In this document: positions 14,497-56,949 of the stretch, one piece after another
Numbering within the stretch: position 1 is the first letter of the stretch
Layout of the letters: the number at the start of each line of letters is the position of its first letter
Source of the DNA: Candidatus Omnitrophota bacterium
GTDB lineage: Bacteria; Omnitrophota; Gorgyraeia; Gygaellales; JAHJCI01
DNA: 58,357 nt
Direction: 5' to 3'
Assembly (NCBI GenBank): GCA_043812035.1
Contig: JBDRMR010000072.1
Coordinates: forward strand, 1-58,357
Notes under the pieces: generated by a model
Seen by the model: only the letters and a program-made list of their open reading frames with translations
Database searches by the model: none
What the model was told of the DNA's origin: nothing
Translations under genes and position numbers: made by a program

Positions 14497-14521
14497 AAAC
14501 CTCGCTTGTCCTCTCTTAAAA

Positions 14522-14794
14522 CTATTTAATTCTTTTTTTCATTTCCAGTCCTGGCCTGAAAACAACACTTTTGCGTGCGGGAACCGGAACAACTTCGCCT
14601 GTACGGGGATTTCTTCCGGTGCGGGGTTTACGCTGTTTTATTTTAAAAACGCCGAAATTCCGCAGTTCAATCTTCTCTCCGCGCACCAATGCGTCCAAAA
14701 TGCAATCAAAAGTAGCTTGCACAATTTTTTTTATCTCAATCTGCTTTAGGTTCGTCTGGTCCGCAATCCTGAGCACTATATCCTTTTTTGTCAT
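14522..14794 (-). CDS. HU/IHF family DNA-binding protein
   Basis: 90 aa. RNPRTGEVVPVPARKSVVFRPG beta-arm motif. Confidence 0.9.
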   Translation of the reverse strand: MTKKDIVLRIADQTNLKQIEIKKIVQATFDCILDALVRGEKIELRNFGVFKIKQRKPRTGRNPRTGEVVPVPARKSVVFRPGLEMKKRIK

Positions 14795-14848
14795 TATCGC
14801 TCCCTCCTGGTTTTGTTACGTAAGTCTCTGTCTTATTATAACTAATAT

Positions 14849-14877
14849 ATTCTAATAAATAAAAGGTGCGGGGTCAA
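14849..14877 (-). promoter_or_regulatory. putative sigma70-type promoter of the HU-like gene
   Basis: Minus-sense TTGACC (14877-14872), 17-nt spacer, TAGAAT (14854-14849). Sits about 55 nt upstream of the start; strong SD CCAGGAGGGAG. Confidence 0.5.
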
Positions 14878-15080
14878 GAAAAATCGCTTTCGCGAAGCTT
14901 CTGGCGATTTTTCTTGATCCTGAGGCCGATAGGACGAGATTCTTCGCGAAGTTTACCCTAGAGCGAAGCGAAGGGCTCAGAATCGTCATCGAGTCCTGAA
15001 CGACCCTTCGGCAGGCTCAGGGTCGTCCTGAGCGAAGCGAAGGACGAAGCGAAGGGCGAAGGATCTTCGGGGGGTCTGGC
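14878..15080. repeat. composite intergenic repeat block (AAATCGC hairpin plus GCGAAGG-word element)
   Basis: gaaaaatcgc...gcgatttttc hairpin at 14879-14914. acgagattcttc...tcctgagcgaagcgaaggacgaagcgaagg at 14935-15054 is shared with 48802-48876. Confidence 0.8.
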
Positions 15081-15085
15081 GCTGG

Positions 15086-22698: not shown

Positions 22699-22744
22699 CT
22701 TTTTTAGTGTTTAGCGTATAGGAAATACTAAACGCTATGCGCTC
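22699..22744. repeat. TAGCGTA/AAACGCT word hairpin in the yajC-secDF spacer
   Basis: gtgtttagcgtataggaaatactaaacgctatgcgc. Same word family as 1586-1705 and 32854-32892. Confidence 0.6.
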
Positions 22745-23020
22745 TTAGGATTTCTTCAAATAAGCAATGCAGTTCTTATCCAGCTCGACCTTTACGTTGT
22801 CGTCTATACGCAAAATTACCGTCTTGTCTTTAACGTTAATAATCTTGCCGTGAACGCCCCCCGTGGTTACGACCTCGTCGTTTTTTTCCACGTTTTGAAT
22901 CATTTTCTGATGCTCTTTCTGGCTCAATCTCTGCGGCCTGATAAGCAAGAAATAGAAAATGACAAAAATAATAATCAGAGGCAATAAATTAACTAAAGGA
23001 TTAACGGCGGCGGATTCCAT
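22745..23020 (-). CDS. yajC: preprotein translocase subunit YajC
   Basis: ATG at 23020 (the ORF track starts at an upstream TTG). MESAAVNPLVNLLPLIIIFVIFYFLLIRPQ...VVTTGGVHGKI. Confidence 0.9.
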   Translation of the reverse strand: MESAAVNPLVNLLPLIIIFVIFYFLLIRPQRLSQKEHQKMIQNVEKNDEVVTTGGVHGKIINVKDKTVILRIDDNVKVELDKNCIAYLKKS

Positions 23021-23026
23021 AATCAA

Positions 23027-23120
23027 CTCCCTTCTTCAATGAGCCCACAACTTACGGAGTCCAAAGGACGACGTAAGTTGTTTGGGCGAATTGAACCCTT
23101 GACATCGTAGATGTCAAGGG
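23027..23120 (-). promoter_or_regulatory. leader cassette copy A (rearranged): TTGACA hairpin, then P1/P3 long hairpin, then the SD of yajC
   Basis: Minus-sense CCCTTGACATCTACGATGTCAAGGG, TTCAAT-TC-GCCC-AA-ACAACTTACG-TC-GTCC-TTT-GGAC-TC-CGTAAGTTGT-GGGC-TC-ATTGAA, then GAAGGGAG. Homologous to copies B-D. Confidence 0.75.
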
Positions 23121-23125
23121 TAAAC

Positions 23126-23404
23126 TCAGCCAGACGACTTAGCTTCACTCTCGTTCGCTAAGTCGTGGCTTCGTTTAACCAAACCGCTTACGGTTTCGGA
23201 CATCTGAGCGCCGCAGGACAGCCAGTAATTAAGTCTTTGCGTGTTTATCTTAATTACCGCCGGCTCTTTGGTGGGGTCGTAATAGCCCAACTCTTCGATA
23301 GAACGGCTGTCTCGCGACTTTCTTTTGTCAAAAACGCTGATGCGGAAAAAGTATCTCTTTTTAGAGCTTTTGCCTATCTTTCTTAATCTTATACGCACTG
23401 ACAT
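23126..23404 (-). CDS. rpsP: 30S ribosomal protein S16
   Basis: 92 aa. MSVRIRLRKIGKSSKKRYFFRISVFDKRKSRDSRSIEELGYYDP. The last ~14 codons coincide with hairpin module Y (23129-23168). Confidence 0.95.
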   Translation of the reverse strand: MSVRIRLRKIGKSSKKRYFFRISVFDKRKSRDSRSIEELGYYDPTKEPAVIKINTQRLNYWLSCGAQMSETVSGLVKRSHDLANESEAKSSG

Positions 23405-32797: not shown

Positions 32798-32853
32798 CTT
32801 AGTTCTATCTTCAGATTCGGATATTTAGCTGTTGCAAAAATTCCCTCTCTTAT

Positions 32854-32892
32854 TATACGCTATCTATACGCTATACGCTAAACGCTATACGC
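32854..32892. repeat. TATACGC word array at the folP 3' end
   Basis: tatacgctatctatacgctatacgctaaacgctatacgc. The last 4 folP codons and the stop lie inside it. Confidence 0.8.
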
Positions 32893-34053
32893 TTTTCTTA
32901 TTGCGTCGGCAATCTTTACCGCCTGCGCCGCAAATTTAACGTCATGAACCCTGACGATGCTAGCACCGTTCATCACGGCTATCGCAAGCGTTGCCAACGT
33001 TCCGCTTAACCTTTGCTGAGGTGGAAGATTTAAGAGCTTGCCGATGAACGATTTTCGCGAAGGCCCTACAAGAACCGGGCAACCCAGCACCTTCAGCTCT
33101 TTCAGACTGTTCAGAATCTCTAAGTTATGTTCTACGGTCTTGCCGAACCCGATCCCCGGATCCACGATGATTCTTTTCTTGTCTATTCCTGAATCCTGCG
33201 CCCTTTTTATCGCCGCAGCCAGGTACCCGATTATCTCGCCCATCAAAAATTCGTATCGCGGATTCTTCTGCATGCTCCTAGGCGTGCCTTTCATGTGCAT
33301 AACGATAACCCGCGCCCTGCTTTTGGCTAATACCTCAATCATGCGGCGATTTCTCAAGCCGGTAATATCGTTCACAATCGAAGCTCCCGAATCCAAAGCC
33401 TGTCTGGCAACTTCCGGCTTATACGTATCTACGGAAATAGGGACTTTAATTATTTTAGATAGTTTTTTTATGACCGGGGCCGTTCTCTTAATTTCTTCTT
33501 TTTCCGATACCGGCAAAGCGCTCGGCCGGCTTGATTCCCCTCCTATATCGATGATGTCCGCGCCTTGAGAAACCAGTTCCCGGGCATAATCAATTATCTG
33601 CCCGATGCTCGCGCCCCTTGTCAGCAAGCCGTCCCCGCTAAACGAGTCGGGCGTAAGATTTACGATACCCATTATCCGCGTTCTGGCGCTTTCCGGCAAT
33701 TGATAATTTTTTAACACCGAGGAGATTCTTCCGCAGAGCCCCTGCAGACCCCGGACTTGCGGCTGCTCGTCAAGCTTGTCCAACAGCCGCTCATACTGGC
33801 TGAGCGTGCCCATAACAAGACAATCGGTTAACCGGGATTTTCCGTTAAGCGTGCCCCGGCTTAAACAAACTTCCCCCCCGATAGAAAGCATCTCCTGTTT
33901 TAAGATGTTTGCGCTGAAGCAATCCAGGTTATTCAGTCTAATCAGGCGCAATATACCTTTCGGAGCCATTATTTCTATTCCCCGCTTATCCGCGCCGATC
34001 TTCCTCATTATCTTCTGAATCTGCTCAATGTCGTCGGTATTGATAATCCGCAT
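32878..34053 (-). CDS. folP: dihydropteroate synthase with ~120 aa N-terminal extension
   Basis: 391 aa. Core IMGIVNLTPDSFSGDG, DIGGESSRP. The N-terminal domain is of unknown function. Confidence 0.85.
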   Translation of the reverse strand: MRIINTDDIEQIQKIMRKIGADKRGIEIMAPKGILRLIRLNNLDCFSANILKQEMLSIGGEVCLSRGTLNGKSRLTDCLVMGTLSQYERLLDKLDEQPQVRGLQGLCGRISSVLKNYQLPESARTRIMGIVNLTPDSFSGDGLLTRGASIGQIIDYARELVSQGADIIDIGGESSRPSALPVSEKEEIKRTAPVIKKLSKIIKVPISVDTYKPEVARQALDSGASIVNDITGLRNRRMIEVLAKSRARVIVMHMKGTPRSMQKNPRYEFLMGEIIGYLAAAIKRAQDSGIDKKRIIVDPGIGFGKTVEHNLEILNSLKELKVLGCPVLVGPSRKSFIGKLLNLPPQQRLSGTLATLAIAVMNGASIVRVHDVKFAAQAVKIADAIRKAYSV

Positions 34054-46847: not shown

Positions 46848-48776
46848 CTATACCTTCGCGTTAAGGAATCTTGAGTTATCCGTATGCGGGAAAAACATAG
46901 CTGCTATATATTCATCCATATAGGCGGATTCGATAGACAGCTCGTAATAAGTAACCTTCTTTGCGATCTCTTTTACCTTCTCCATTGCCTGATAAGAAAG
47001 TAAAACCCGGCACGCGCCTGCCAGGGAACTATTCCCCACGAAGATAAGCCTGTCCCGCTTAATATTCGGGAACAACCCTATACTTACCGCATTCTCAATA
47101 TTTATATATGTTCCGAATCCCCCGGCGACGAATATCTTTTTAATATCGTTAAAGTCCAGGTTTGTCTGTCTCACTAAAATCGAGGCAGCGGCAAATATAG
47201 CCGCCTTGGCGCGCTTTATATTATCGATGTCGTCTTCGGTAATTATAATATCCGAGCTTGATTCCGCTTCCTCTTTAAATGCGATGACGAATTCAAGGCC
47301 GGAATCGCCCTTTCGCAGGCGGGGGCTTTTGATTTGATTGAACTTTCCGTCTTTATTGATTGCGCCTGCTTTTAACAAGCCGGACACGATGTCGATGTAG
47401 CCTGAGCCGCAAATCCCCAGAGCCCTTCCCCGGCCGATAACTTCAAAGCCGACGCTATAGTCTTTAGGAGAAATCTTTACATTTTGTATTGCTCCTCTGG
47501 CAGCCCTTATGCCGCAAGTCAAGCCGCTGCCTTCAAATGCTGGTCCGGCCGAAGCGGCGCAGCCGATTAAAAACTCATTATTTCCCAGAACAATCTCGCC
47601 GTTTGTGCCGATGTCGATTAATAAGCATAACTGTTCTTCCTTATATATGCCGCAAGACAGAATCCCCGAACAAGTATCCCCGCCCAAATAGCTGGAGACT
47701 CCGGGAATGCAGGATAAAAGGCCGCGCGGATTTATTTTTATTCCCGCCTCGGTAGCCCGTATCGTCGGGACTAAATTTGCTGTCGGAACATATGGCTCTT
47801 TTCTGATGTAGGTTGGGTCTACCCGCAGAAGAAGATGAATCATTGTGGTATTCCCCGCGCACAGAACGCAGTTGACGTCGTTTAAATCAATGTTGTTTTC
47901 CGCAGCCAGGTCCTTAATCATCTCGTTCATAGTGTCGATAACCGCGTGGTGCAGCTTTTCCAAACCGTGCGTCTCGCGCGCGAAGATTATGCGGCTGATG
48001 ATATCGCTGCCGAAAGCGGCCTGCTTATTATATGCTGCCTTTGTGCCGAGAGCCTTTTTTTTGTTTAAATCCACCAGCTGCGAAGAAATGGTGGTGGTCC
48101 CGATATCAAAACAAATCCCGTAATTCTTGCTCGATGTGTCTCCCGGCTCAACCAGAACAATCTCTGTAGTGCCGTTCCTTTTTCCGAGAGTAACGGTTAC
48201 CTTCCATTCTGAGCCGCGCAGGATCTGCCCGAGCCTGCGTATGTTAACCAGTCCGGTCTGCATTACGGGGATATCGTGAGCCCGGCGAATCGCACGGTAC
48301 AATCTTTCTAGGTCGCTTATCCGGTCGGCGTGGTCAGGCGGAGGCAGCTCTAAAAATAATTTTGTAGCTAAAGGAGAATGAAGAAAGACTCCTTCTTCTA
48401 AAATCGGCTTCGGCGCCTCTATTTCCTCCGCCTTCGAATACAGGCCTTTTAATCTTAAATCAATTTCTTCCTGGGTTAACCTCTCGAAATCCAACCTGGA
48501 CTCGGGAGGAATTAAGACATCCAGGTCGCTTTGAACCAATGCCTGACAGGCCAGATAATAGCCCTGCCTTCTCTGCTCAGGCGAAATCCTCCCGGATGGC
48601 TGGCCTAAGACCTCGCCCTTCCTTACGATTGCTTTACACCTGCCGCAGACGCCCTCGCCGCCGCAGCTTGAATTAATGTGGATATTGGCTGTCAAAGCCG
48701 CGGCCAGGATAGTCTTGCCTTTCTCTATCTCGACGGTTTTATTGTCCGGATAAAAGGTAACTTTAAATTTTCCCAT
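46848..48776 (-). CDS. reductive activator of corrinoid Fe-S protein (RACo; 2Fe-2S ferredoxin plus ASKHA ATPase)
   Basis: 642 aa. Plant-type ferredoxin motif SSCGGEGVCGRCK, then DIGTTT and DIGTNGE ASKHA phosphate motifs. Confidence 0.85.
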   Translation of the reverse strand: MGKFKVTFYPDNKTVEIEKGKTILAAALTANIHINSSCGGEGVCGRCKAIVRKGEVLGQPSGRISPEQRRQGYYLACQALVQSDLDVLIPPESRLDFERLTQEEIDLRLKGLYSKAEEIEAPKPILEEGVFLHSPLATKLFLELPPPDHADRISDLERLYRAIRRAHDIPVMQTGLVNIRRLGQILRGSEWKVTVTLGKRNGTTEIVLVEPGDTSSKNYGICFDIGTTTISSQLVDLNKKKALGTKAAYNKQAAFGSDIISRIIFARETHGLEKLHHAVIDTMNEMIKDLAAENNIDLNDVNCVLCAGNTTMIHLLLRVDPTYIRKEPYVPTANLVPTIRATEAGIKINPRGLLSCIPGVSSYLGGDTCSGILSCGIYKEEQLCLLIDIGTNGEIVLGNNEFLIGCAASAGPAFEGSGLTCGIRAARGAIQNVKISPKDYSVGFEVIGRGRALGICGSGYIDIVSGLLKAGAINKDGKFNQIKSPRLRKGDSGLEFVIAFKEEAESSSDIIITEDDIDNIKRAKAAIFAAASILVRQTNLDFNDIKKIFVAGGFGTYINIENAVSIGLFPNIKRDRLIFVGNSSLAGACRVLLSYQAMEKVKEIAKKVTYYELSIESAYMDEYIAAMFFPHTDNSRFLNAKV

Positions 48777-48801
48777 TTTAAATGAGCACGCAACTTATGG
48801 A

Positions 48802-48922
48802 ACGAGATTCTTCACTTTGTCCTTCGTCACTTCGTTCCTCAGGACAATCCTGAGCGAAGCGAAGGACGAAGCGAAGGACGAAGCGAAGGGTCTCTCTCAC
48901 CTCCGTTGGAGGTGAGACCTCC
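48802..48922. repeat. GCGAAGG-word element (second copy, one extra 12-nt unit) plus a 10-bp hairpin
   Basis: acgagattcttc...tcctgagcgaagcgaaggacgaagcgaagg(acgaagcgaagg)g, then tctcacctcc-gttg-gaggtgaga. Confidence 0.85.
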
Positions 48923-51749: not shown

Positions 51750-52250
51750 CTATCTAATCTTGCCCGAGGCTATCCAGGTGTCGATATTTTTACGTTCAAA
51801 CCTCCAGTCCTCACCCTCTCTGACTCCAGGCAGCTTTCCCGAATCGGCCCATTCCACAATGGAATTCAAATCTACTTCCAAATAACGCGCTAACTCCTCC
51901 GCGGTTAAGAAATCGTGCAACATGTAACATTTCCCGTCAAAAATCGCCCCCTCGGCAATATTCAATTTTGACGGATATATTTCTCCTTCTACGATTGCCT
52001 TGGGCAAAAGCGAAAGCATCTCTTTGGCCACGATTTTGCCTCTAACCCTGCCTCCGATAATGATGCTGTCGCCGATTATATCCGCCCTCACCATAGCGGT
52101 AGTCCCTATAGTCAGAGTTCCCCTGACTTCTAAGTTTCCTTCAAAGCTGCCGTTGATTCGCAAATTCACGGGGTCTTTAAAACTCAAGCTGCCCTGCATC
52201 GAAGCGTCCACATCCAGAAGCTTCTCCTCTATCTTTTTCCTTAAACGCAT
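51750..52250 (-). CDS. bactofilin domain fused to a C-terminal excisionase-type HTH
   Basis: Start set at ATG 52250, after the cassette SD. The ORF-track N-terminal 52 aa are the translated leader cassette. Bactofilin repeats LRINGSFEGNLEVRGTLTIG...IIGGRVRGKIVA...IAEGAIFDGKCYM. HTH LTAEELARYLEVDLNSIVEWADSGKLPG. Confidence 0.75.
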   Translation of the reverse strand: MRLRKKIEEKLLDVDASMQGSLSFKDPVNLRINGSFEGNLEVRGTLTIGTTAMVRADIIGDSIIIGGRVRGKIVAKEMLSLLPKAIVEGEIYPSKLNIAEGAIFDGKCYMLHDFLTAEELARYLEVDLNSIVEWADSGKLPGVREGEDWRFERKNIDTWIASGKIR

Positions 52251-52426
52251 TGTTTTCTCACCTCCTTCAATGAGCAGGCGATTTATGGAGCACGCAGTGC
52301 GACATAAATCGTAGGCATTGACATCTTTGATGTCAATGCCGCCTGCGAATTGAACCCAGCACTTATTTGCTGATTTAAGATACGGTTCAAATAAGTGCTG
52401 GACCAAATTCAGCCACGGCCTTCGGC
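52251..52426 (-). promoter_or_regulatory. leader cassette copy B (core 52261-52354) with upstream 14-bp hairpin X (52355-52401)
   Basis: Minus-sense TTCAAT-TC-GCAGG...GGCATTGACATC-AAA-GATGTCAATGCC...CGATTTATG-TC-GCAC-TGC-GTGC-TC-CATAAATCG-CCTGC-TC-ATTGAA-GGAGG. TTGACA, 17 nt, TACGAT is embedded. Confidence 0.8.
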
Positions 52427-52873
52427 CTATTTAGAAAGCCCTTTTTCCAGTTGGCCCAGGAAAAAGAGGATCGCTATCGCCAGAACAGCGGTGACTAAAC
52501 TGGCCAGGTAAAAACCGCAGCCTATGCCCATACCGATTCCCGCAACGAGCCAGAGACTGGCAGCTGTTGTTAAGCCTCTTACCGCTTCTCCTGAACGGAT
52601 TATTGCGCCTGCGCCGAGAAAACCGATTCCGGTAATTATCCCGGCGGCGATTCGTGCGGGGTCTAAAGTAGCTACGTCCTTATATATATCAAAAACATAT
52701 TGAGATGTCAACATTATAAGGCAGGAACCTAATGACACCAGGATATGCGTGCGCAAGCCGGCACTGCGTTTCTTAACCTCCCGCTCAAAGCCAATTAACC
52801 CGCCTAAGATTATCGCTAAAATCAAACGCCCAAAAATAGCCAAAGGAGCAATCATCTTCTCCACCTCCTTCAA
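52427..52873 (-). CDS. MgtC/SapB family membrane protein
   Basis: 148 aa. GFEREVKKRSAGLRTHILV, 4-5 TM helices. Confidence 0.85.
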   Translation of the reverse strand: MKEVEKMIAPLAIFGRLILAIILGGLIGFEREVKKRSAGLRTHILVSLGSCLIMLTSQYVFDIYKDVATLDPARIAAGIITGIGFLGAGAIIRSGEAVRGLTTAASLWLVAGIGMGIGCGFYLASLVTAVLAIAILFFLGQLEKGLSK

Positions 52874-52954
52874 TGAGCAGATAACTTATGGAGCGTAAGC
52901 GACATAAGTTATAGGCATTGACATCGTAGATGTCAATGCCGTCTGCGAATTGAA
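52864..52954 (-). promoter_or_regulatory. leader cassette copy C (91 nt, identical to copy D)
   Basis: Minus-sense TTCAAT-TC-GCAGA-C-GGCATTGACATC-TAC-GATGTCAATGCC-T-ATAACTTATG-TC-GC-TTAC-GC-TC-CATAAGTTAT-CTGC-TC-ATTGAA-GGAGG. TTGACA (52936-52931), 17 nt, TATAAC (52913-52908). Confidence 0.85.
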
Positions 52955-53934
52955 TATCCCAAACCCGCAACCATTGCCGCATTGTCGGTGCAAAATTCTT
53001 TCGGAGAAAAATAAACCCTTAAACGGTTAATACCCGCCTCATTCCCGAATTTCTCTCTGAGGCGACTATTTGCCGCAACGCCTCCCCCCACAACCAATTG
53101 GTCCGTCTTGTTTAACCTGCAAGCTAAAACGGATTTCCTGACGAGCGCATCAATGACTGCTTCCTGAAAAGAGGCAGCCACGTCTCGAATAACGGGCAGC
53201 GGGCAGCGGGAAGCGGAGAACGGAGAATGCTTCCCGCGCCCCGTATCGCGTTTCCCGCCACCCGTTCCCCGAACATAATACAACACTGCCGTCTTTATCC
53301 CGCTAAAACTGAAGTCCAAAGGACGCTGGGTATTGCTGCATCTGAACTTTATACTCGCGGGATTTCCTTTTTTTGCAAACTTCTCAATAACCGGGCCGCC
53401 GGGAAAACTTAATCCTAAAATGCCGGCAACCTTGTCATATGCCTCTCCGCAGGCATCGTCCCGGGTCGAACCGAGGGGCTTGATTTTAGAGAATCTCTCA
53501 ACGTAAAACAAACTCGTATGCCCTCCGGAAACTACCAGGCCGACAAAAGGAAAACGGGGTTTTTCTTTGTTGAAAAAGGCGGAATAGAGATGGGCGTGCA
53601 GGTGATTTATCTTAACCAAGGGTAAATCCCGCGCGAAGCTCAAAGCCCTGGCGAAACAAATACCGACAAGCAAAGAGCCGTGCAAACCGGGTTGCTCTGT
53701 TACCGCAATCAGCTTTATATTATTTAACTTTGTTCCAGCCTGCTCTAAACTGTCGGCAAAGACGGCGCTTATCGTTTCCGAATGCCTGCGAGAGGCTATT
53801 TCCGGGACTATGCCTCTGTAGCGCCTGTGAAAATTCAAGCTTGATGAAACAATGTTAGAATAAACCTTTTGACCGTTCTCAACTACGGAGACCGCCGTCT
53901 CGTCGCATGAAGTCTCTATGCCTAACACCAACAT
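52933..53934 (-). CDS. tsaD: tRNA N6-adenosine threonylcarbamoyltransferase
   Basis: 333 aa. MLVLGIETSCDETAVSVV, VVSGGHTSL, VVGGGVAANS. Its stop TGA lies inside the TTGACA of cassette C. Confidence 0.9.
   Translation of the reverse strand: MLVLGIETSCDETAVSVVENGQKVYSNIVSSSLNFHRRYRGIVPEIASRRHSETISAVFADSLEQAGTKLNNIKLIAVTEQPGLHGSLLVGICFARALSFARDLPLVKINHLHAHLYSAFFNKEKPRFPFVGLVVSGGHTSLFYVERFSKIKPLGSTRDDACGEAYDKVAGILGLSFPGGPVIEKFAKKGNPASIKFRCSNTQRPLDFSFSGIKTAVLYYVRGTGGGKRDTGRGKHSPFSASRCPLPVIRDVAASFQEAVIDALVRKSVLACRLNKTDQLVVGGGVAANSRLREKFGNEAGINRLRVYFSPKEFCTDNAAMVAGLGYSIRRRH
53191..53267. repeat. imperfect GC-rich hairpin (CGGGCAG/CGGAGAA words) inside tsaD
   Basis: gggaagc...gcttccc 7-bp core. Outer aacgggcagcggg / cccgccacccgtt arms have two C-A mismatches on the plus strand, which are G-U pairs in mRNA sense. 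Encodes GTGGGKRDTGRGKHSPFSASRCPLPV. Confidence 0.7.
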
Positions 53935-55211
53935 TATTTACTCTTATATATCTTGATAGCCTTTAATACGTCCACTGCCCGCATCAATTGGTTATCGGTC
54001 AGGTATTTCCCGGGAACTTCCTTCGCCTGCTCTTGCTTTCCTTCGCTCTCCTCTAATCCTTGAAAAATATCGGCTATGGATTTCTCCTCTTGTTCGGCCA
54101 GCTCGATCTTGCCTTCTTCTACGATTATGTCGGGATTAACGCCCTGACCGTGGATTACCCGCCCGTTCGGGCTAAAATACTTACTGGTGGTCAATCTAAT
54201 CGCGGAGCCGTCGTTTAAAGGGATGACGGTTTGAACCGAGCCCTTTCCGAAGGTCTTGGTGCCCAATATAATTGCCCGCTTATAATCCTGCAATGCCGCA
54301 GCTACGATTTCGCTTCCCGACGCAGACCCGTTGTTTACCAAAATCACCAAAGGCAGGCTTAAATCCGGCTCCCTGCTCTTAGAATCGAATTCCATGTTTT
54401 GATTTTCTTTCCTTCCCCGGGTGGAGACTATAAGCTGGCCTTTTTCCACAAAGTTCTCCGTAATCTTAACTGCGGCGTCAAGCAACCCTCCCGGATTATT
54501 CCTTAAATCGAGAATCAGCGCATCCATGCCTTGCGATTTTAATTTTTGCACCGCCTTGCCGAATTCATCCGGCGTATTTTGACGAAATTCAACGAGGCGG
54601 ATATAACCTATGCCCTCATCCAATATCTGCGCCTCTTTTATATCCTTTATCTTTATAATTTCCCGGATAATCTTAAATTCCAGAAGCTTATCTTTTCCCT
54701 CTCTCAGCACGGTTATGCTTACCTGTGAACCGGGCTTGCCCCGCAGCTTCTTTACGGCTTCGAGCAGGTTAATATCTCGGGTAAGTTCTCCGTCGATTTT
54801 TACGATATGGTCTCCTGCCTTTATCCCCGCCTGCCAAGCGGGAGTATCCTCAATCGGCGTCACCACGGTAAGTAGTCCGTCCTTGAGGGTTATCTCGATT
54901 CCCAAGCCGCCGAATTCTCCGGTAGTATCTACCTTCAACTCATTGTATGTATCCGGGTCCATAAATTGGCTGTGTGGGTCCAGAGAGTCGAGCATCCCTG
55001 TGAGCGCTCCGTAAACCAGCTCTTTGGAATCGACCTCTTCAACGTAGTCGTTTTTTATGATTGCGAAGCCGTCGGAAAATAAATTTATATTTCTATATAA
55101 ATCGTCCTTCTTCTCTGCTTGCTTCTCCTGGGAAATCGCGATTGAGCCGATAACCACAGCCGCGGCTAAAACTGAAATCAACATCGAAAATTTTAATATC
55201 TTTCTTCGCAT
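53934..55211 (-). CDS. ctpA: carboxy-terminal processing protease (S41) with PDZ domain
   Basis: Start set at ATG 55211 (MRRKILKF...). The ORF-track TTG start lies in the cassette SD. GSASGSEIVAAAL, KTFGKGSVQ. Confidence 0.9.
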   Translation of the reverse strand: MRRKILKFSMLISVLAAAVVIGSIAISQEKQAEKKDDLYRNINLFSDGFAIIKNDYVEEVDSKELVYGALTGMLDSLDPHSQFMDPDTYNELKVDTTGEFGGLGIEITLKDGLLTVVTPIEDTPAWQAGIKAGDHIVKIDGELTRDINLLEAVKKLRGKPGSQVSITVLREGKDKLLEFKIIREIIKIKDIKEAQILDEGIGYIRLVEFRQNTPDEFGKAVQKLKSQGMDALILDLRNNPGGLLDAAVKITENFVEKGQLIVSTRGRKENQNMEFDSKSREPDLSLPLVILVNNGSASGSEIVAAALQDYKRAIILGTKTFGKGSVQTVIPLNDGSAIRLTTSKYFSPNGRVIHGQGVNPDIIVEEGKIELAEQEEKSIADIFQGLEESEGKQEQAKEVPGKYLTDNQLMRAVDVLKAIKIYKSK

Positions 55212-55395
55212 AACCGTTTCCTCCTTCAATGAGCAGATAACTTATGGAGCGTAAGCGACATAAGTTATAGGCATTGACATCGTAGATGTCAATGCCGTCT
55301 GCGAATTGAACCCTTGACATTTTGTTACTACAAAATGTCAAGGGTCAAATTCAGACATAGAACTTAGCTTCGCTATCGCTCGCTAAGTTCTGTCT
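55212..55395 (-). promoter_or_regulatory. leader cassette copy D: core 55220-55310, hairpin X 55311-55344, hairpin Y 55354-55394
   Basis: The core is 100% identical to 52864-52954. X is CCCTTGACATTTTG-TAGTAAC-CAAAATGTCAAGGG. Y is GACAGAACTTAGC-GAGCGATAGCGAA-GCTAAGTTCTATGTC and starts 1 nt after the gatB stop. Confidence 0.85.
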
Positions 55396-56820
55396 TCATT
55401 TGATTAATCTCTTCTTCAATATCTCCAATACCGCCTTGGGATTAGCCTTGCCTTTGGACTTTCGCATAACCTGACCGACTAAATACTGAACGGCGTTCTC
55501 TTTGCCGCCTAAATAATCGTTAGCCGAATCCGGGTTTTCCCGTATGGACTCTTCTATAATTTTATCCAGGGCTTCTCCGGCGGAAATCTGGATTAAATTC
55601 TTCCTCTCGACAATTATCTCAGGAGCCTCGCCGGTTTCGATCATCTCGGTTAAAACACCCTTGGCTGCGATATTGGAAATCTTGCCCTCCCTGGATAACT
55701 TAATCAGGCTTGATAGATTCTCCGGCATAAGGTTCAAATCGGCAATGCTCAGTTTGCGGTTATTTAGTTCGGAAAGCAAAGGGCCGCTAATCCAGTTGAC
55801 AATCATTTTTGCCTCAGGATAAAATTTAAAACAATCTTCGAAAAATTCGGCAAGCTCTTTCTCCGAAGTTAAAATACGCGTATCGTATTCCGAAAGCCGG
55901 TAATCCCGCATAAAACGCTCCTCTTTTTGCCGGGGTAATTCAGGCAAGGACTTTTCTATCTCCTGTCGCATCCTTGAATCGATAACAAAAGGAGGCAGGT
56001 CCGGCTCGGGGAAATAGCGATAATCCTGGGCTTCCTCCTTTGTGCGCATTGGGCAAGTTCTTTGGCCCTGGACATCCCACAATCGCGTTTCCTGAATTAC
56101 CTTGCCCCCGCTCTGCAGTAATTTTGTCTGACGTTTTAATTCAAATTCCAGAGCGTCGCGAACCCCCCTAAAAGAATTCATATTCTTCAACTCTGTCTTG
56201 ATCCCTAAAACAAGTTCGTCTTTTTTCTTAACTGATATATTGGCATCGCACCTCAAAATTCCCTTTTCCATATCGCAACTTGAAATCCCCAGATACCGGA
56301 TGGTTTGTTTTAAGGTTACTAAATACTCGTAAGCCTCCTGCGGCGAATTAATGTCCGGACAGCTCACTATCTCAAGGAGCGGTATGCCGGTCCGGTTAAA
56401 ATCAACTAAACTTACGTCTTCTTCATGAATCAATTTCCCCGCGTCCTCTTCCAGATGCACCCGTTTAATGCCGATACGCTTCTGTCCGCCGTTTAAGCCC
56501 ATGTTCAAAAACCCGTCCTGGCCTATAGGTAAATCGTACTGGGAAATCTGATAATTCTTTGGTAAATCTGGATAAAAATAGTTCTTGCGGTCGAATTTAG
56601 TGAATTCGGCAACCCGGCAGTTCAGCGCAATCGCCACTTTTACGGCGTATTCAAAAGCCTTTTGGTTAAACACCGGCAGACACCCCGGCAGGCCCAAACA
56701 AACCGGGCAAACCTGAGAATTCGGCTGGCTGCCGAATTCGGTCGAGCATCCGCAAAATATCTTGGTGTCTGTTTTTAGCTGAACGTGAACCTCTAATCCG
56801 ATTACTGCCTCATATTCCAT
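55396..56820 (-). CDS. gatB: Asp/Glu-tRNA amidotransferase subunit B
   Basis: 474 aa. MEYEAVIGLEVHVQLKTDTKIFC. Confidence 0.97.
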   Translation of the reverse strand: MEYEAVIGLEVHVQLKTDTKIFCGCSTEFGSQPNSQVCPVCLGLPGCLPVFNQKAFEYAVKVAIALNCRVAEFTKFDRKNYFYPDLPKNYQISQYDLPIGQDGFLNMGLNGGQKRIGIKRVHLEEDAGKLIHEEDVSLVDFNRTGIPLLEIVSCPDINSPQEAYEYLVTLKQTIRYLGISSCDMEKGILRCDANISVKKKDELVLGIKTELKNMNSFRGVRDALEFELKRQTKLLQSGGKVIQETRLWDVQGQRTCPMRTKEEAQDYRYFPEPDLPPFVIDSRMRQEIEKSLPELPRQKEERFMRDYRLSEYDTRILTSEKELAEFFEDCFKFYPEAKMIVNWISGPLLSELNNRKLSIADLNLMPENLSSLIKLSREGKISNIAAKGVLTEMIETGEAPEIIVERKNLIQISAGEALDKIIEESIRENPDSANDYLGGKENAVQYLVGQVMRKSKGKANPKAVLEILKKRLIK

Positions 56821-56949
56821 AATTATTATAGTCTCAGTTACTGGCGGTTACTGTTAGTTACTGACGGTTACTTTTTTGTAACCGACAATAACCATTAGTA
56901 ACAAACTGTCGTTTTGCTTGGATTCAGTAACTATCAGTAACTATAAAAA
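56821..56949. repeat. 129-nt gatA-gatB spacer made of GTTACTG/GTAAC words (long imperfect hairpin)
   Basis: cagttactggcggttactgttagttactgacggttac-ttttttg-taaccgacaataaccattagtaacaaactg, followed by cagtaactatcagtaactat. Shares ttttttgtaacc with the hisI tail region. Confidence 0.8.

Follow-up and report, generated by a model that had tools for sequence, protein, structure and literature searches.

A family of compound palindromic repeats, apparently specific to Omnitrophota, punctuates gene boundaries in the 58,357-nt contig JBDRMR010000072.1 of a Candidatus Omnitrophota bacterium (GenBank assembly GCA_043812035.1), the whole of which is referred to below as the window. The original prediction, made from the letters of the window, had singled out one diverged hairpin copy (copy B, upstream of a bactofilin-HTH (helix-turn-helix) gene) as a structure maintained by compensatory base changes. 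The units of this family share one fold with covarying stems, stand in register to the stop codon of one gene and to the Shine-Dalgarno (SD) sequence and start codon of the next, whatever these genes encode, and have been copied, homogenized and inverted at the DNA level. The explanation that we favor, at a probability of roughly 45%, is that a REP/BIME/MITE-like palindromic repeat confined to Omnitrophota was co-opted as a transcribed gene-boundary cassette, in which a conserved TC/TC mismatch would be the recognition site of a putative factor.

All neighboring genes in the window lie on the minus strand, and therefore, it is the reverse complement of the element that has to be read. The full module comprises, on the coding strand, three abutting hairpins without linkers, an A unit, a spacer hairpin denoted H-1 and an S (sense) unit, in this order. 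The S unit has the form GGG-TTCAAT-TC-GCNN...NNGC-TC-ATTGAA-G-GAGG, ending one G before the SD sequence (GAGG) of the next gene, and folds into an outer helix, P0 (UUCAAU/AUUGAA), followed by a 2x2 UC/UC internal loop, a second helix, P1, and a variable but stable interior. The A unit reads T(C/A)AAAT-TC-RGMC on its own strand and UCAAAU-GA-RGMC...GKCY-GA-AUUUGA in the mRNA sense. H-1 is a CCC...GGG hairpin that is present in at least 62 of 95 sense units; its stems belong to a few discrete sequence families common to different genomes, and its loop varies from 1 to 100 nt. The units and associated signals in the window are the following.

52266-52354, minus strand: S unit copy B, delineated from its sequence, minimum free energy (MFE) fold, covariance-model match and covariation.
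52349-52354 (UUCAAU) and 52266-52271 (AUUGAA), minus strand: P0 of copy B.
52347-52348 and 52272-52273, minus strand: basal UC/UC loop of copy B.
Within copy B, minus strand: P1, GCAGG/CCUGC.
52314-52340, minus strand: P2 hairpin of copy B, a 12-bp stem with the loop AAA at 52326-52328.
52303-52312 and 52279-52287, minus strand: P3a of copy B.
52301-52302 and 52288-52289, minus strand: inner UC/UC loop of copy B.
Within copy B, minus strand: P3b, GCAC-UGC-GUGC.
52248-52265, minus strand: SD and start following copy B, comprising G plus GAGG at 52261-52265, then 10 nt of spacer and the bactofilin-HTH start codon, ATG, at 52248-52250.
52355-52402, minus strand: H-1 spacer hairpin of module B, CCAGCACUUAUUUG ... 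CAAAUAAGUGCUGG, with a 15-bp stem, abutting both neighbors without a linker.
52403-52434, minus strand: reduced inverted (A) unit of module B, CUAAAU-AG-GCC..GGCU-GA-AUUUGG.
52869-52954 (52864-52954 with GGAGG), minus strand: S unit copy C, with neither H-1 nor an A unit.
55225-55310, minus strand: S unit copy D, followed by GGAGG at 55220-55224 and the ATG of ctpA (S41 peptidase) at 55209-55211.
55311-55344, minus strand: H-1 hairpin of module D, CCCUUGACAUUUUGU ... ACAAAAUGUCAAGGG.
55345-55403, plus strand: inverted A unit of module D, TCAAAT-TC-AGAC...GTCT-TC-ATTTGA.
23035-23095, minus strand: S unit copy A, a minimal form without P2, with P1 GCCC/GGGC and P3 ACAACUUACG/CGUAAGUUGU, upstream of yajC-secDF.
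23096-23120, minus strand: H-1 hairpin of module A, CCCUUGACAUC-UAC-GAUGUCAAGGG.
23121-23178, plus strand: inverted A unit of module A, with a covariance-model match at 23123-23175.
48774-48800, minus strand: half unit E, CCAUAAGUUGC-GUGC-UC-AUUUAA-A-AUG, the 3' strand alone, without an SD.

Read on the coding strand, copy B is UUCAAU-UC-GCAGG-C-(P2: GGCAUUGACAUC AAA GAUGUCAAUGCC)-U-(P3: ACGAUUUAUG-UC-GCAC UGC GUGC-UC-CAUAAAUCG)-CCUGC-UC-AUUGAA-G-GAGG-N10-AUG, where the bactofilin-HTH gene (identified with Pfam) starts at the AUG and the SD stretch, 52248-52265, is unpaired in the MFE fold. Compared with dinucleotide shuffles, the RNA folds of modules B and D have z-scores of -7.0 and -11.4, respectively, and the predicted folds contain about 26 stacked pairs with interruptions by 2x2 loops. 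The best covariance-model match in the window is copy A (92.7 bits), and the A unit of module D is matched over its full length on the plus strand (55339-55410, 44.9 bits). Modules occur in the window at a density of about 1 per 15 kb.

The four S units of the window differ from one another in a manner that preserves pairing. Copies C and D are identical (100% from TTCAAT through GGAGG), and relative to them, copy B carries three double substitutions in P3 (ACGATTTATG/CATAAATCG versus ATAACTTATG/CATAAGTTAT), a longer apical stem (GCAC/GTGC versus GC/GC) and an AAA rather than a TAC loop on an identical 12-bp P2 stem. Copy A shows compensated changes in both P1 (GCCC/GGGC) and P3 (...TTACG/CGTAA...) on the minus strand. 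These paired differences are as originally described, and the associated expectation that covariation would hold with more genomic copies has been borne out. The covariance model was built from 29 minimal units of 61-64 nt, in which 94% of the alignment cells are paired, 12 of the 24 pairs show double changes, and the covariation score is 0.33, compared with 0.13 for shuffled alignments (none of 500 shuffles scored as high). For the 150 best matches to this model, from 60 genomes and aligned by fitting to it, 95.4% of the cells are paired, compared with 74% after shuffling and 23-46% with slid partners, and 23 of the 24 pairs, including those in P0 and P1, show double substitutions.

Conservation of the mismatch loops is uneven. 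It had been claimed that TC opposes TC in every copy, at the base and inside P3; this is the case for copies A, B, C and D, where TC faces TC both between TTCAAT/ATTGAA and P1 and within P3, and, phylum-wide, for the basal loop, whereas the inner P3 loop is TC/TC in 43 of 67 units and TT/TC in 10 of the 67, so that the basal loop alone is nearly invariant. The 5' side of the basal loop is TC in 95 of 98 sense units and in all 27 inverted units, and its 3' side is T followed by C in nearly all units, including those in which P0 itself has changed (TTTAAT/ATTAAA, TTAAAT/ATTTAA, ATAAAT/ATTTAT). A scan that allowed any dinucleotides in the 2x2 loop retrieved TC/TC 94 times and each other non-complementary type at most 5 times, apart from GA/GA (130 times), which represents the same units read on the other strand. 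In palindromes, templated correction from one arm to the other can yield paired substitutions without any RNA selection, but a TC/TC loop that survives such correction argues that the loop itself is under selection. The covariation and the conserved symmetric loop together support a selected structure with a specific recognition feature. UUCG and GNRA tetraloops were considered as proof of an RNA fold and set aside as weak, given that a true cUUCGg occurs only 6 times, most TTCG tetranucleotides are in triloop contexts, and TTCG in the inverted units is found on the strand that is not the mRNA.

The family is large and, as far as the searches reached, limited to one phylum. The pattern TTCAATTCGC-N40-70-GCTCATTGAAG, scanned over one genome per GTDB species, yielded no fewer than 115 loci; among the 117 matches listed, about 100 fold into the predicted compound hairpin, most with GGG or GGA in front and GAGG and ATG behind. 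Identical termini were found in at least 60 species-level genomes labeled Omnitrophota or unclassified PVC (Planctomycetes-Verrucomicrobia-Chlamydiae), and all folded matches come from metagenome-assembled genomes (MAGs) labeled Omnitrophota/Omnitrophica or from third-party annotation (TPA) bins labeled Planctomycetia/Planctomycetales. The 17 matches in other phyla show no structure, and their number is close to the chance estimate; a scan of viral contigs gave 0 matches. With the covariance model, 232 matches were detected in 755 kb of Omnitrophota loci plus the window, and a regular-expression unit finder, which produced 0.34 false positives per kb in control loci prior to filtering by energy and composition, returned 126 matches after the filter, compared with 2 in the controls. 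At the Rfam gathering threshold, the window contains two tRNAs and no family match to the element, an Rfam E-value scan of 52150-55450 gave sub-threshold noise alone, and literature searches with phylum and motif terms and with the literal conserved sequences returned nothing relevant to the motif. The repeat family is undescribed: no named family fits, including REP by its defining tag. Typical modules are also found in TPA MAGs deposited as "uncultured Planctomycetia/Planctomycetales" (loci L004, L010, L033, L054, L062, L065, L077, L082, L094, L101, L105, L110 and L113; L numbers denote loci outside the window) and in one deposited as "Candidatus Brocadiaceae" (L080). These carriers are either mislabeled Omnitrophota or a sign that the family reaches neighboring PVC lineages.

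The units are set in register to translation signals on both sides. Sense units account for 98 of the 150 best covariance-model matches; the start codon, ATG in 89 of the 98, mostly follows P0 by 9-12 nt, and 85 of the 98 have an SD-like motif. In a few SD-less variants from other genomes, ATG lies 1 nt after P0, as it does in half unit E of the window, where this ATG belongs to the RACo gene. The A units, in turn, hold the stop codon of the upstream gene, either as the TAA in GUAAAU or as a UGA formed by the GA loop and the last base of P0', the P0 of the A unit; they carry stop codons in two of the three frames, and the positions of the upstream stop in inverted units peak at -10 and -14. 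In module D, the A unit of which reads UCAAAU-GA-AGAC...GUCU-GA-AUUUGA in the mRNA sense, the gatB stop (TGA, 55396-55398) spans P0' and the GA loop, and in the reduced A unit of module B, the mgtC stop (TAG, 52427-52429) consists of the last P0' base and the loop. In module A, the rpsP (S16) open reading frame (ORF) runs through the inverted unit and stops at the TGA (23126-23128) in the 3' GA loop; about 17 C-terminal residues of S16 would be repeat-encoded (23126-23178), unless the true stop or the annotation differs. The P0/P1 consensus differs between the A and S orientations, matching the stop-codon-bearing and SD-bearing roles, respectively. Module orientation strictly follows the direction of the flanking genes, and all 22 close pairs of units are head-to-head A, H-1, S arrangements between co-directional genes; none of the 22 is tandem or tail-to-tail. 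Long-range pairing between the A and S units, whether of the A 3' strand GAAUUUGA with the S 5' strand UUCAAUUC or as a cloverleaf, was rejected because P0' of the A unit covaries only locally (TCAAAT/ATTTGA, GTAAAT/ATTTAC, GTAAGT/ACTTAC, TCACAT/ATGTGA) while the S strand stays TTCAAT.

The position of the S unit in the 5' leader beside the SD, together with the covariation and the conserved internal loop, could suggest a gene-specific cis-regulatory RNA (a riboswitch, thermometer or protein-binding leader) that controls a regulon. We disfavor this interpretation strongly. The 94 downstream genes represent 127 Pfam families, none of which occurs in more than two genes; they include housekeeping genes as unrelated as yajC, ctpA, mgtC, bactofilin, PFK, chorismate synthase and ATP synthase subunit c, and 98 downstream proteins fall into 88 clusters. 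The unrelatedness of these genes speaks against a riboswitch or a regulon-specific leader, and the element is a generic repeat rather than a gene-specific regulator. Furthermore, the interiors of the units are interchangeable, inverted copies reside at the 3' ends of genes, copies within one genome can be identical, there is no Rfam match, the SD is not occluded in the predicted folds, and the scans revealed no U-tract terminator inside the modules. A putative resemblance of GCUCAUUGAAGG to the boxA of rrn operons does not fit a position beside every SD.

Where a module precedes the first gene of a transcription unit, with a divergent upstream neighbor, sigma70-like promoters are located just upstream of the A unit (TTGAAA-17-TAAAAT in L071 and TTGACA-17-TAGTAT in L090). 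Because such promoters lie upstream of the whole module, the module would be transcribed, in these cases as a 5' untranslated region (UTR). The module could alternatively act as a transcription cassette, in double-stranded DNA or nascent RNA, with the inverted unit and H-1 terminating the upstream operon and embedded hexamers (TTGACA in H-1 and P2, TAYRAY at the start of P3) initiating the next. Modules do fill the whole gap at boundaries of functionally unrelated genes, TTGACA-type stems recur in H-1, and promoter-like sequences are present, namely, TTGACA-17-TACGAT in copy B (10 of 12 positions) and TTGACA-17-TATAAC in C, D and L057. However, promoter-like matches are no more common in modules than in shuffled sequences and have no constant geometry across copies: with an H-1 loop of 1-100 nt and several H-1 families without TTGACA, there is no fixed -35/-10 arrangement. 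Scans of the modules detected no U-tract terminators, canonical promoters stand upstream of the module at first genes, and a promoter model predicts no pairing-preserving covariation. We consider this alternative improbable.

Several observations on promoter-like sequences and transcription in the window can be added. In B, C, D and L057, TTGACA lies in the 5' arm of P2 and, after a spacer of exactly 17 nt, the -10-like hexamer at the start of P3; the embedded, near-consensus sigma70-like promoters would occupy minus-strand positions 52308-52336, 52908-52936 and 55264-55292, an arrangement shared by L057 and L088, and a transcript started there would be devoid of P0, P1 and P2. An orphan 5' arm of H-1, CCCCGCACCTTTT, is found at 14849-14877 (minus strand) with its partner missing; together with a preceding TTGA, it forms TTGACC-17-TAGAAT, which precedes by about 55 nt a small ORF (ATG 14792-14794) that we presume, from its translation, to encode a putative HU/IHF-like protein. 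Repeat junctions may occasionally create promoters. Nearly all long ORFs of the 58-kb window are on the minus strand, with a few plus-strand ones around 37.2-38.8 kb, and GC skew is negative in every 4-kb bin except that it approaches zero around 36-40 kb, a pattern that fits long co-directional transcription units punctuated by repeats.

Copying at the DNA level is evident from copies C and D, the identity of which begins with the first base of P0 and stops after GGAGG, so that the copied segment has sharp ends. The synteny gatB|ctpA-tsaD|mgtC|bactofilin is common to the window and to the loci L008 and L015, and at the tsaD|mgtC junction, which is occupied by unit C in the window, tsaD abuts mgtC in L015. 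The 5' part of unit C encodes the last residues of TsaD and the stop (TGA, 52933-52935): the TsaD protein of the window ends in ...VAGLGYSIRRRH*, with SIRRRH and the stop encoded by the repeat sequence TTCAATTCGCAGACGGCATTGA (52933-52954), whereas TsaD in L015 and L008 is about 17 residues longer. Insertion of unit C thus truncated tsaD, replacing about 17 codons and rewriting the C-terminus. No direct repeats were seen to flank unit C or modules A and D, the few junctions that were inspected. Units also occupy two orthologous positions, the gatB|ctpA junction of L008 and the mgtC|bactofilin junction of L015, but the interiors of these units resemble those of paralogs from the same genome, which points to concerted evolution, or homogenization. 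Interiors at least 0.9 identical make up 5 of 93 within-genome pairs and 1 of 4660 between-genome pairs, the median being 0.57 in both, as would be expected of an old family with occasional recent copying.

Inversion is apparent from the comparison of strains. A search for other strains through the exact MgtC protein retrieved one 1-kb contig, L116 (ENA ERZ27247128 k141_84521), which differs from the window by 2 single-nucleotide polymorphisms per kb and contains TTT at 553-555 in place of the P2 loop AAA (52326-52328) of copy B. A change from AAA to TTT in the loop of a perfect 12-bp palindrome implies that the hairpin was inverted at the DNA level. Between L038 and L084, the H-1 hairpins differ by the same AAA/TTT flip. 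The L116 contig stops within unit C, and the assembly seems to have been broken by the repeat.

These features raise the alternative of a purely DNA-level, non-autonomous repeat of the REPIN/MITE type, the single-stranded hairpins of which would be recognized, via TC/TC, by a dedicated enzyme, for example a RAYT/IS200-like tyrosine transposase, with the register to SD and stop codons reflecting those insertions that survived in compact genomes. The inverted, head-to-head pairs with a spacer, the retention of TC/TC and TTCG by inverted copies on their own strand, the near-perfect stems lacking a G·U bias, the sharp-ended identity of C and D with the truncated tsaD and the empty site in L015, the loop flipped between strains and the within-genome excess of near-identical pairs all speak for it. 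So does precedent: REP elements form head-to-head dimers and maintain conserved mismatches that their transposase requires (PMC3733652, PMC3116915), so that the original argument, by which a mismatch would be lost from a plain DNA palindrome, does not discriminate between the two (PMC3733652). Nevertheless, we regard this alternative as rather unlikely in its pure form. The termini are the same in 60 genomes and occupancy is conserved at orthologous junctions, whereas the REP and MITE families known so far have a patchy distribution within particular lineages; each of the 98 sense units points toward a start codon, mostly at 9-12 nt, and the SD is within the copied unit; the P0/P1 consensus differs between orientations in accordance with their roles; and neither a GTAG nor a CGTC tag is present, the few junctions inspected show no target-site duplication, and no transposase turned up, although no genome-wide search for one was made.

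Another mobile-element alternative, integron-like attC recombination sites flanking gene cassettes, deserves hardly any credence. There is a likeness to attC in that both are structure-defined sites between co-directional ORFs, with the 3' core just upstream of the next start codon; the layout of a folded attC is also recognizable, in that the terminal helix, here TTCAAT/ATTGAA as against RYYYAAC/GTTRRRY, is followed by an unpaired central spacer, then by another helix and finally by a terminal structure that varies. A single gene, mgtC, lies between two units, and copies within a genome are similar. However, the cores differ down to the terminal base pair, the 2x2 loop is symmetric without extrahelical bases, each junction has two units and a spacer instead of one site, and the flanked genes are core housekeeping genes in synteny conserved between species, with modules scattered over many contigs and not forming an array. 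No intI was seen near the examined copies, although no systematic search was made.

Among the described repeats, the REP/BIME/REPIN elements are the closest in their general organization, being interspersed, intergenic, imperfect palindromes with subfamilies that differ by alternative complementary stem residues, conserved functional mismatches, a predominance of head-to-head dimers with a spacer, frequent co-transcription with flanking genes, and vertical inheritance combined with within-genome turnover (PMC3733652, PMC3116915, PMC3337134). By definition, however, a REP is a palindrome of 20-40 nt, one end of which carries an unpaired tag, GTAG or CGTC (PMC3733652), whereas the Omnitrophota units are compound hairpins of 59-100 nt, often with three-way junctions, that begin with TTCAAT-TC-GC, end with GC-TC-ATTGAA and have no such terminal tag. 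Moreover, REP families are confined to a species or genus, vary strongly in abundance and go with a single-copy RAYT (Y1 transposase) gene that the repeats flank. The termini of the Omnitrophota family, by contrast, are shared by 60 genomes of one phylum, a constant distance of one nucleotide separates the sense unit from the SD, and the stop codon overlaps with the inverted unit. The Correia (CREE) and ERIC elements are likewise intergenic repeats, of about 100-200 bp, with inverted ends, which fold when transcribed, can carry expression signals and differ in presence between genomes (PMC2649163, PMC10969869). RNase III or RNase E acts on their folded transcripts, and each of them is limited to one genus or family, can be inserted in both orientations and is flanked by target-site duplications, TA in the case of Correia (PMC2649163, PMC10969869). 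The module resembles MITEs in that its A and S units are inverted copies of each other and serve as terminal inverted repeats around a variable H-1, and in its presence or absence at an orthologous site (tsaD|mgtC in the window and L015). In contrast to Correia and ERIC, each "end" is an independently covarying hairpin with an invariant 2x2 mismatch, orientation to the genes is strict, and an SD and a stop codon are built in. No known REP or MITE family is conserved nearly as widely as the Omnitrophota one, and a built-in register to SD and stop codon is not described for those families.

The RNase III sites of phage T7 provide a parallel at the RNA level. These are repeated, mutually similar intercistronic hairpins with a conserved internal loop, located between co-directional genes of long polycistronic transcripts, and they leave protective hairpins on the processed mRNAs; there is a handful of such sites in one phage genome. 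In the Omnitrophota modules, by comparison, the UC/UC loop is symmetric, the inverted partner has no T7 counterpart, and cleavage is hypothetical, but the predicted geometry of the module is compatible with an RNase III-type processing site, which is cut at the internal loop of a helix of about two turns.

Under the scenario we favor, a co-opted, transcribed repeat, the module would be part of mRNAs, either between cistrons or as a 5' UTR. The S hairpin would supply the SD and AUG and present them unpaired directly 3' of a very stable helix, which would also shield the 5' side and keep initiation independent of the sequence upstream, while the inverted hairpin would cap the upstream ORF. The UC/UC loop (TC/TC in DNA) would be the recognition or cleavage site of a putative trans-acting factor, the candidates being an RNase that processes the transcript and a DNA enzyme that is specific for the hairpin and copies the unit. 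A role at the RNA level is favored by the strict register to translation signals and by the positional conservation, recognition at the DNA level by the strand behavior of the inverted units and the perfection of the stems, and both may be true.

Several considerations weigh against this scenario. The inverted units conserve TC/TC on their own strand rather than on the mRNA strand, and also keep TTCG on the own, non-mRNA strand (12 versus 1), which means that a single RNA-binding factor cannot read both types of units. The stems are 96-98% Watson-Crick, with mismatches in 2.4-3.7% of the pairs, and G·U is in no clear excess over A·C (10 versus 5 and 5 versus 5), which is unusual for an old RNA-selected fold, although the rarity of mismatches makes this strand test uninformative. 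One third of the units have an unrelated interior (long perfect hairpins, or a purine-rich spacer with an AT-rich hairpin). The SD, unpaired in the MFE folds of modules B and D, appears not to be sequestered, leaving no obvious switch, and the transcription, processing and translational effect of the module are what we infer. On the methodological side, fitting the 150-match alignment to the model favors structure, the seed pattern fixed the P0/P1 termini in two thirds of the copies, and the taxon labels of the MAGs were taken at face value, as deposited. The original prediction of a selected RNA fold or a specific protein-binding structure accordingly holds in part: covariation and the symmetric loop uphold it, but the near-perfect stems, the TC/TC on the own strand of inverted copies, the identity of C and D and the flipped loop indicate DNA-level palindrome dynamics and not a purely RNA-selected fold.

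A more speculative and, on balance, doubtful extension is that the modules constitute a phylum-wide system of gene punctuation. A putative dedicated factor would recognize the UC/UC loop of sense hairpins and, in inverted hairpins, the mirrored GA/GA, and would cut long same-strand polycistronic transcripts at every module, such that each cistron would keep a protective 3' hairpin with its stop codon and a 5' hairpin that brings the ribosome to the SD of the element, and DNA-level copying would install new boundaries, as at tsaD|mgtC.

Additional types of repeats occupy gaps in the window. Regions 1586-1702, 22700-22757 and 32800-32900 contain a different family, tandem heptamers (CTATACG, GCGTATA, TAGCGGA) in inverted arrays that form long hairpins, and analogous, genome-specific heptamer-array hairpins (TAGCTAA, CGTATAT, GTATCTC, AAGGTTAC and others) are found at many other Omnitrophota loci. 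In the gatA|gatB gap (56835-56942), (C)AGTAAC(T/C)G repeats are arrayed in inverted orientation and fold into a hairpin of about 100 nt, a further type of gene-boundary repeat. Short tandem repeats of the CTTCGCTTCGTCC type form a long hairpin at 48830-48900, upstream of half unit E in the cdhD|RACo gap, and recur at 15010-15065, within the long gap 14497-15085.

The repeat has practical consequences in that it causes contig breaks in assemblies and misleads ORF callers, with ORFs running into the units, and the motif is a sharp taxonomic marker, carried also by several MAGs deposited as Planctomycetia. By combining covariation, an invariant mismatch and DNA-level copying in one element, this family can help to tell whether "compensatory" changes stem from selection on RNA or from mutation templated by the palindrome, and it can inform on how selfish palindromic repeats turn into host expression signals. 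The Omnitrophota are uncultured, and we know of no account of how they organize gene expression. A module in which one gene's stop codon and the following gene's ribosome-binding site are both contained offers a testable handle on their operon architecture, mRNA processing and translation initiation.

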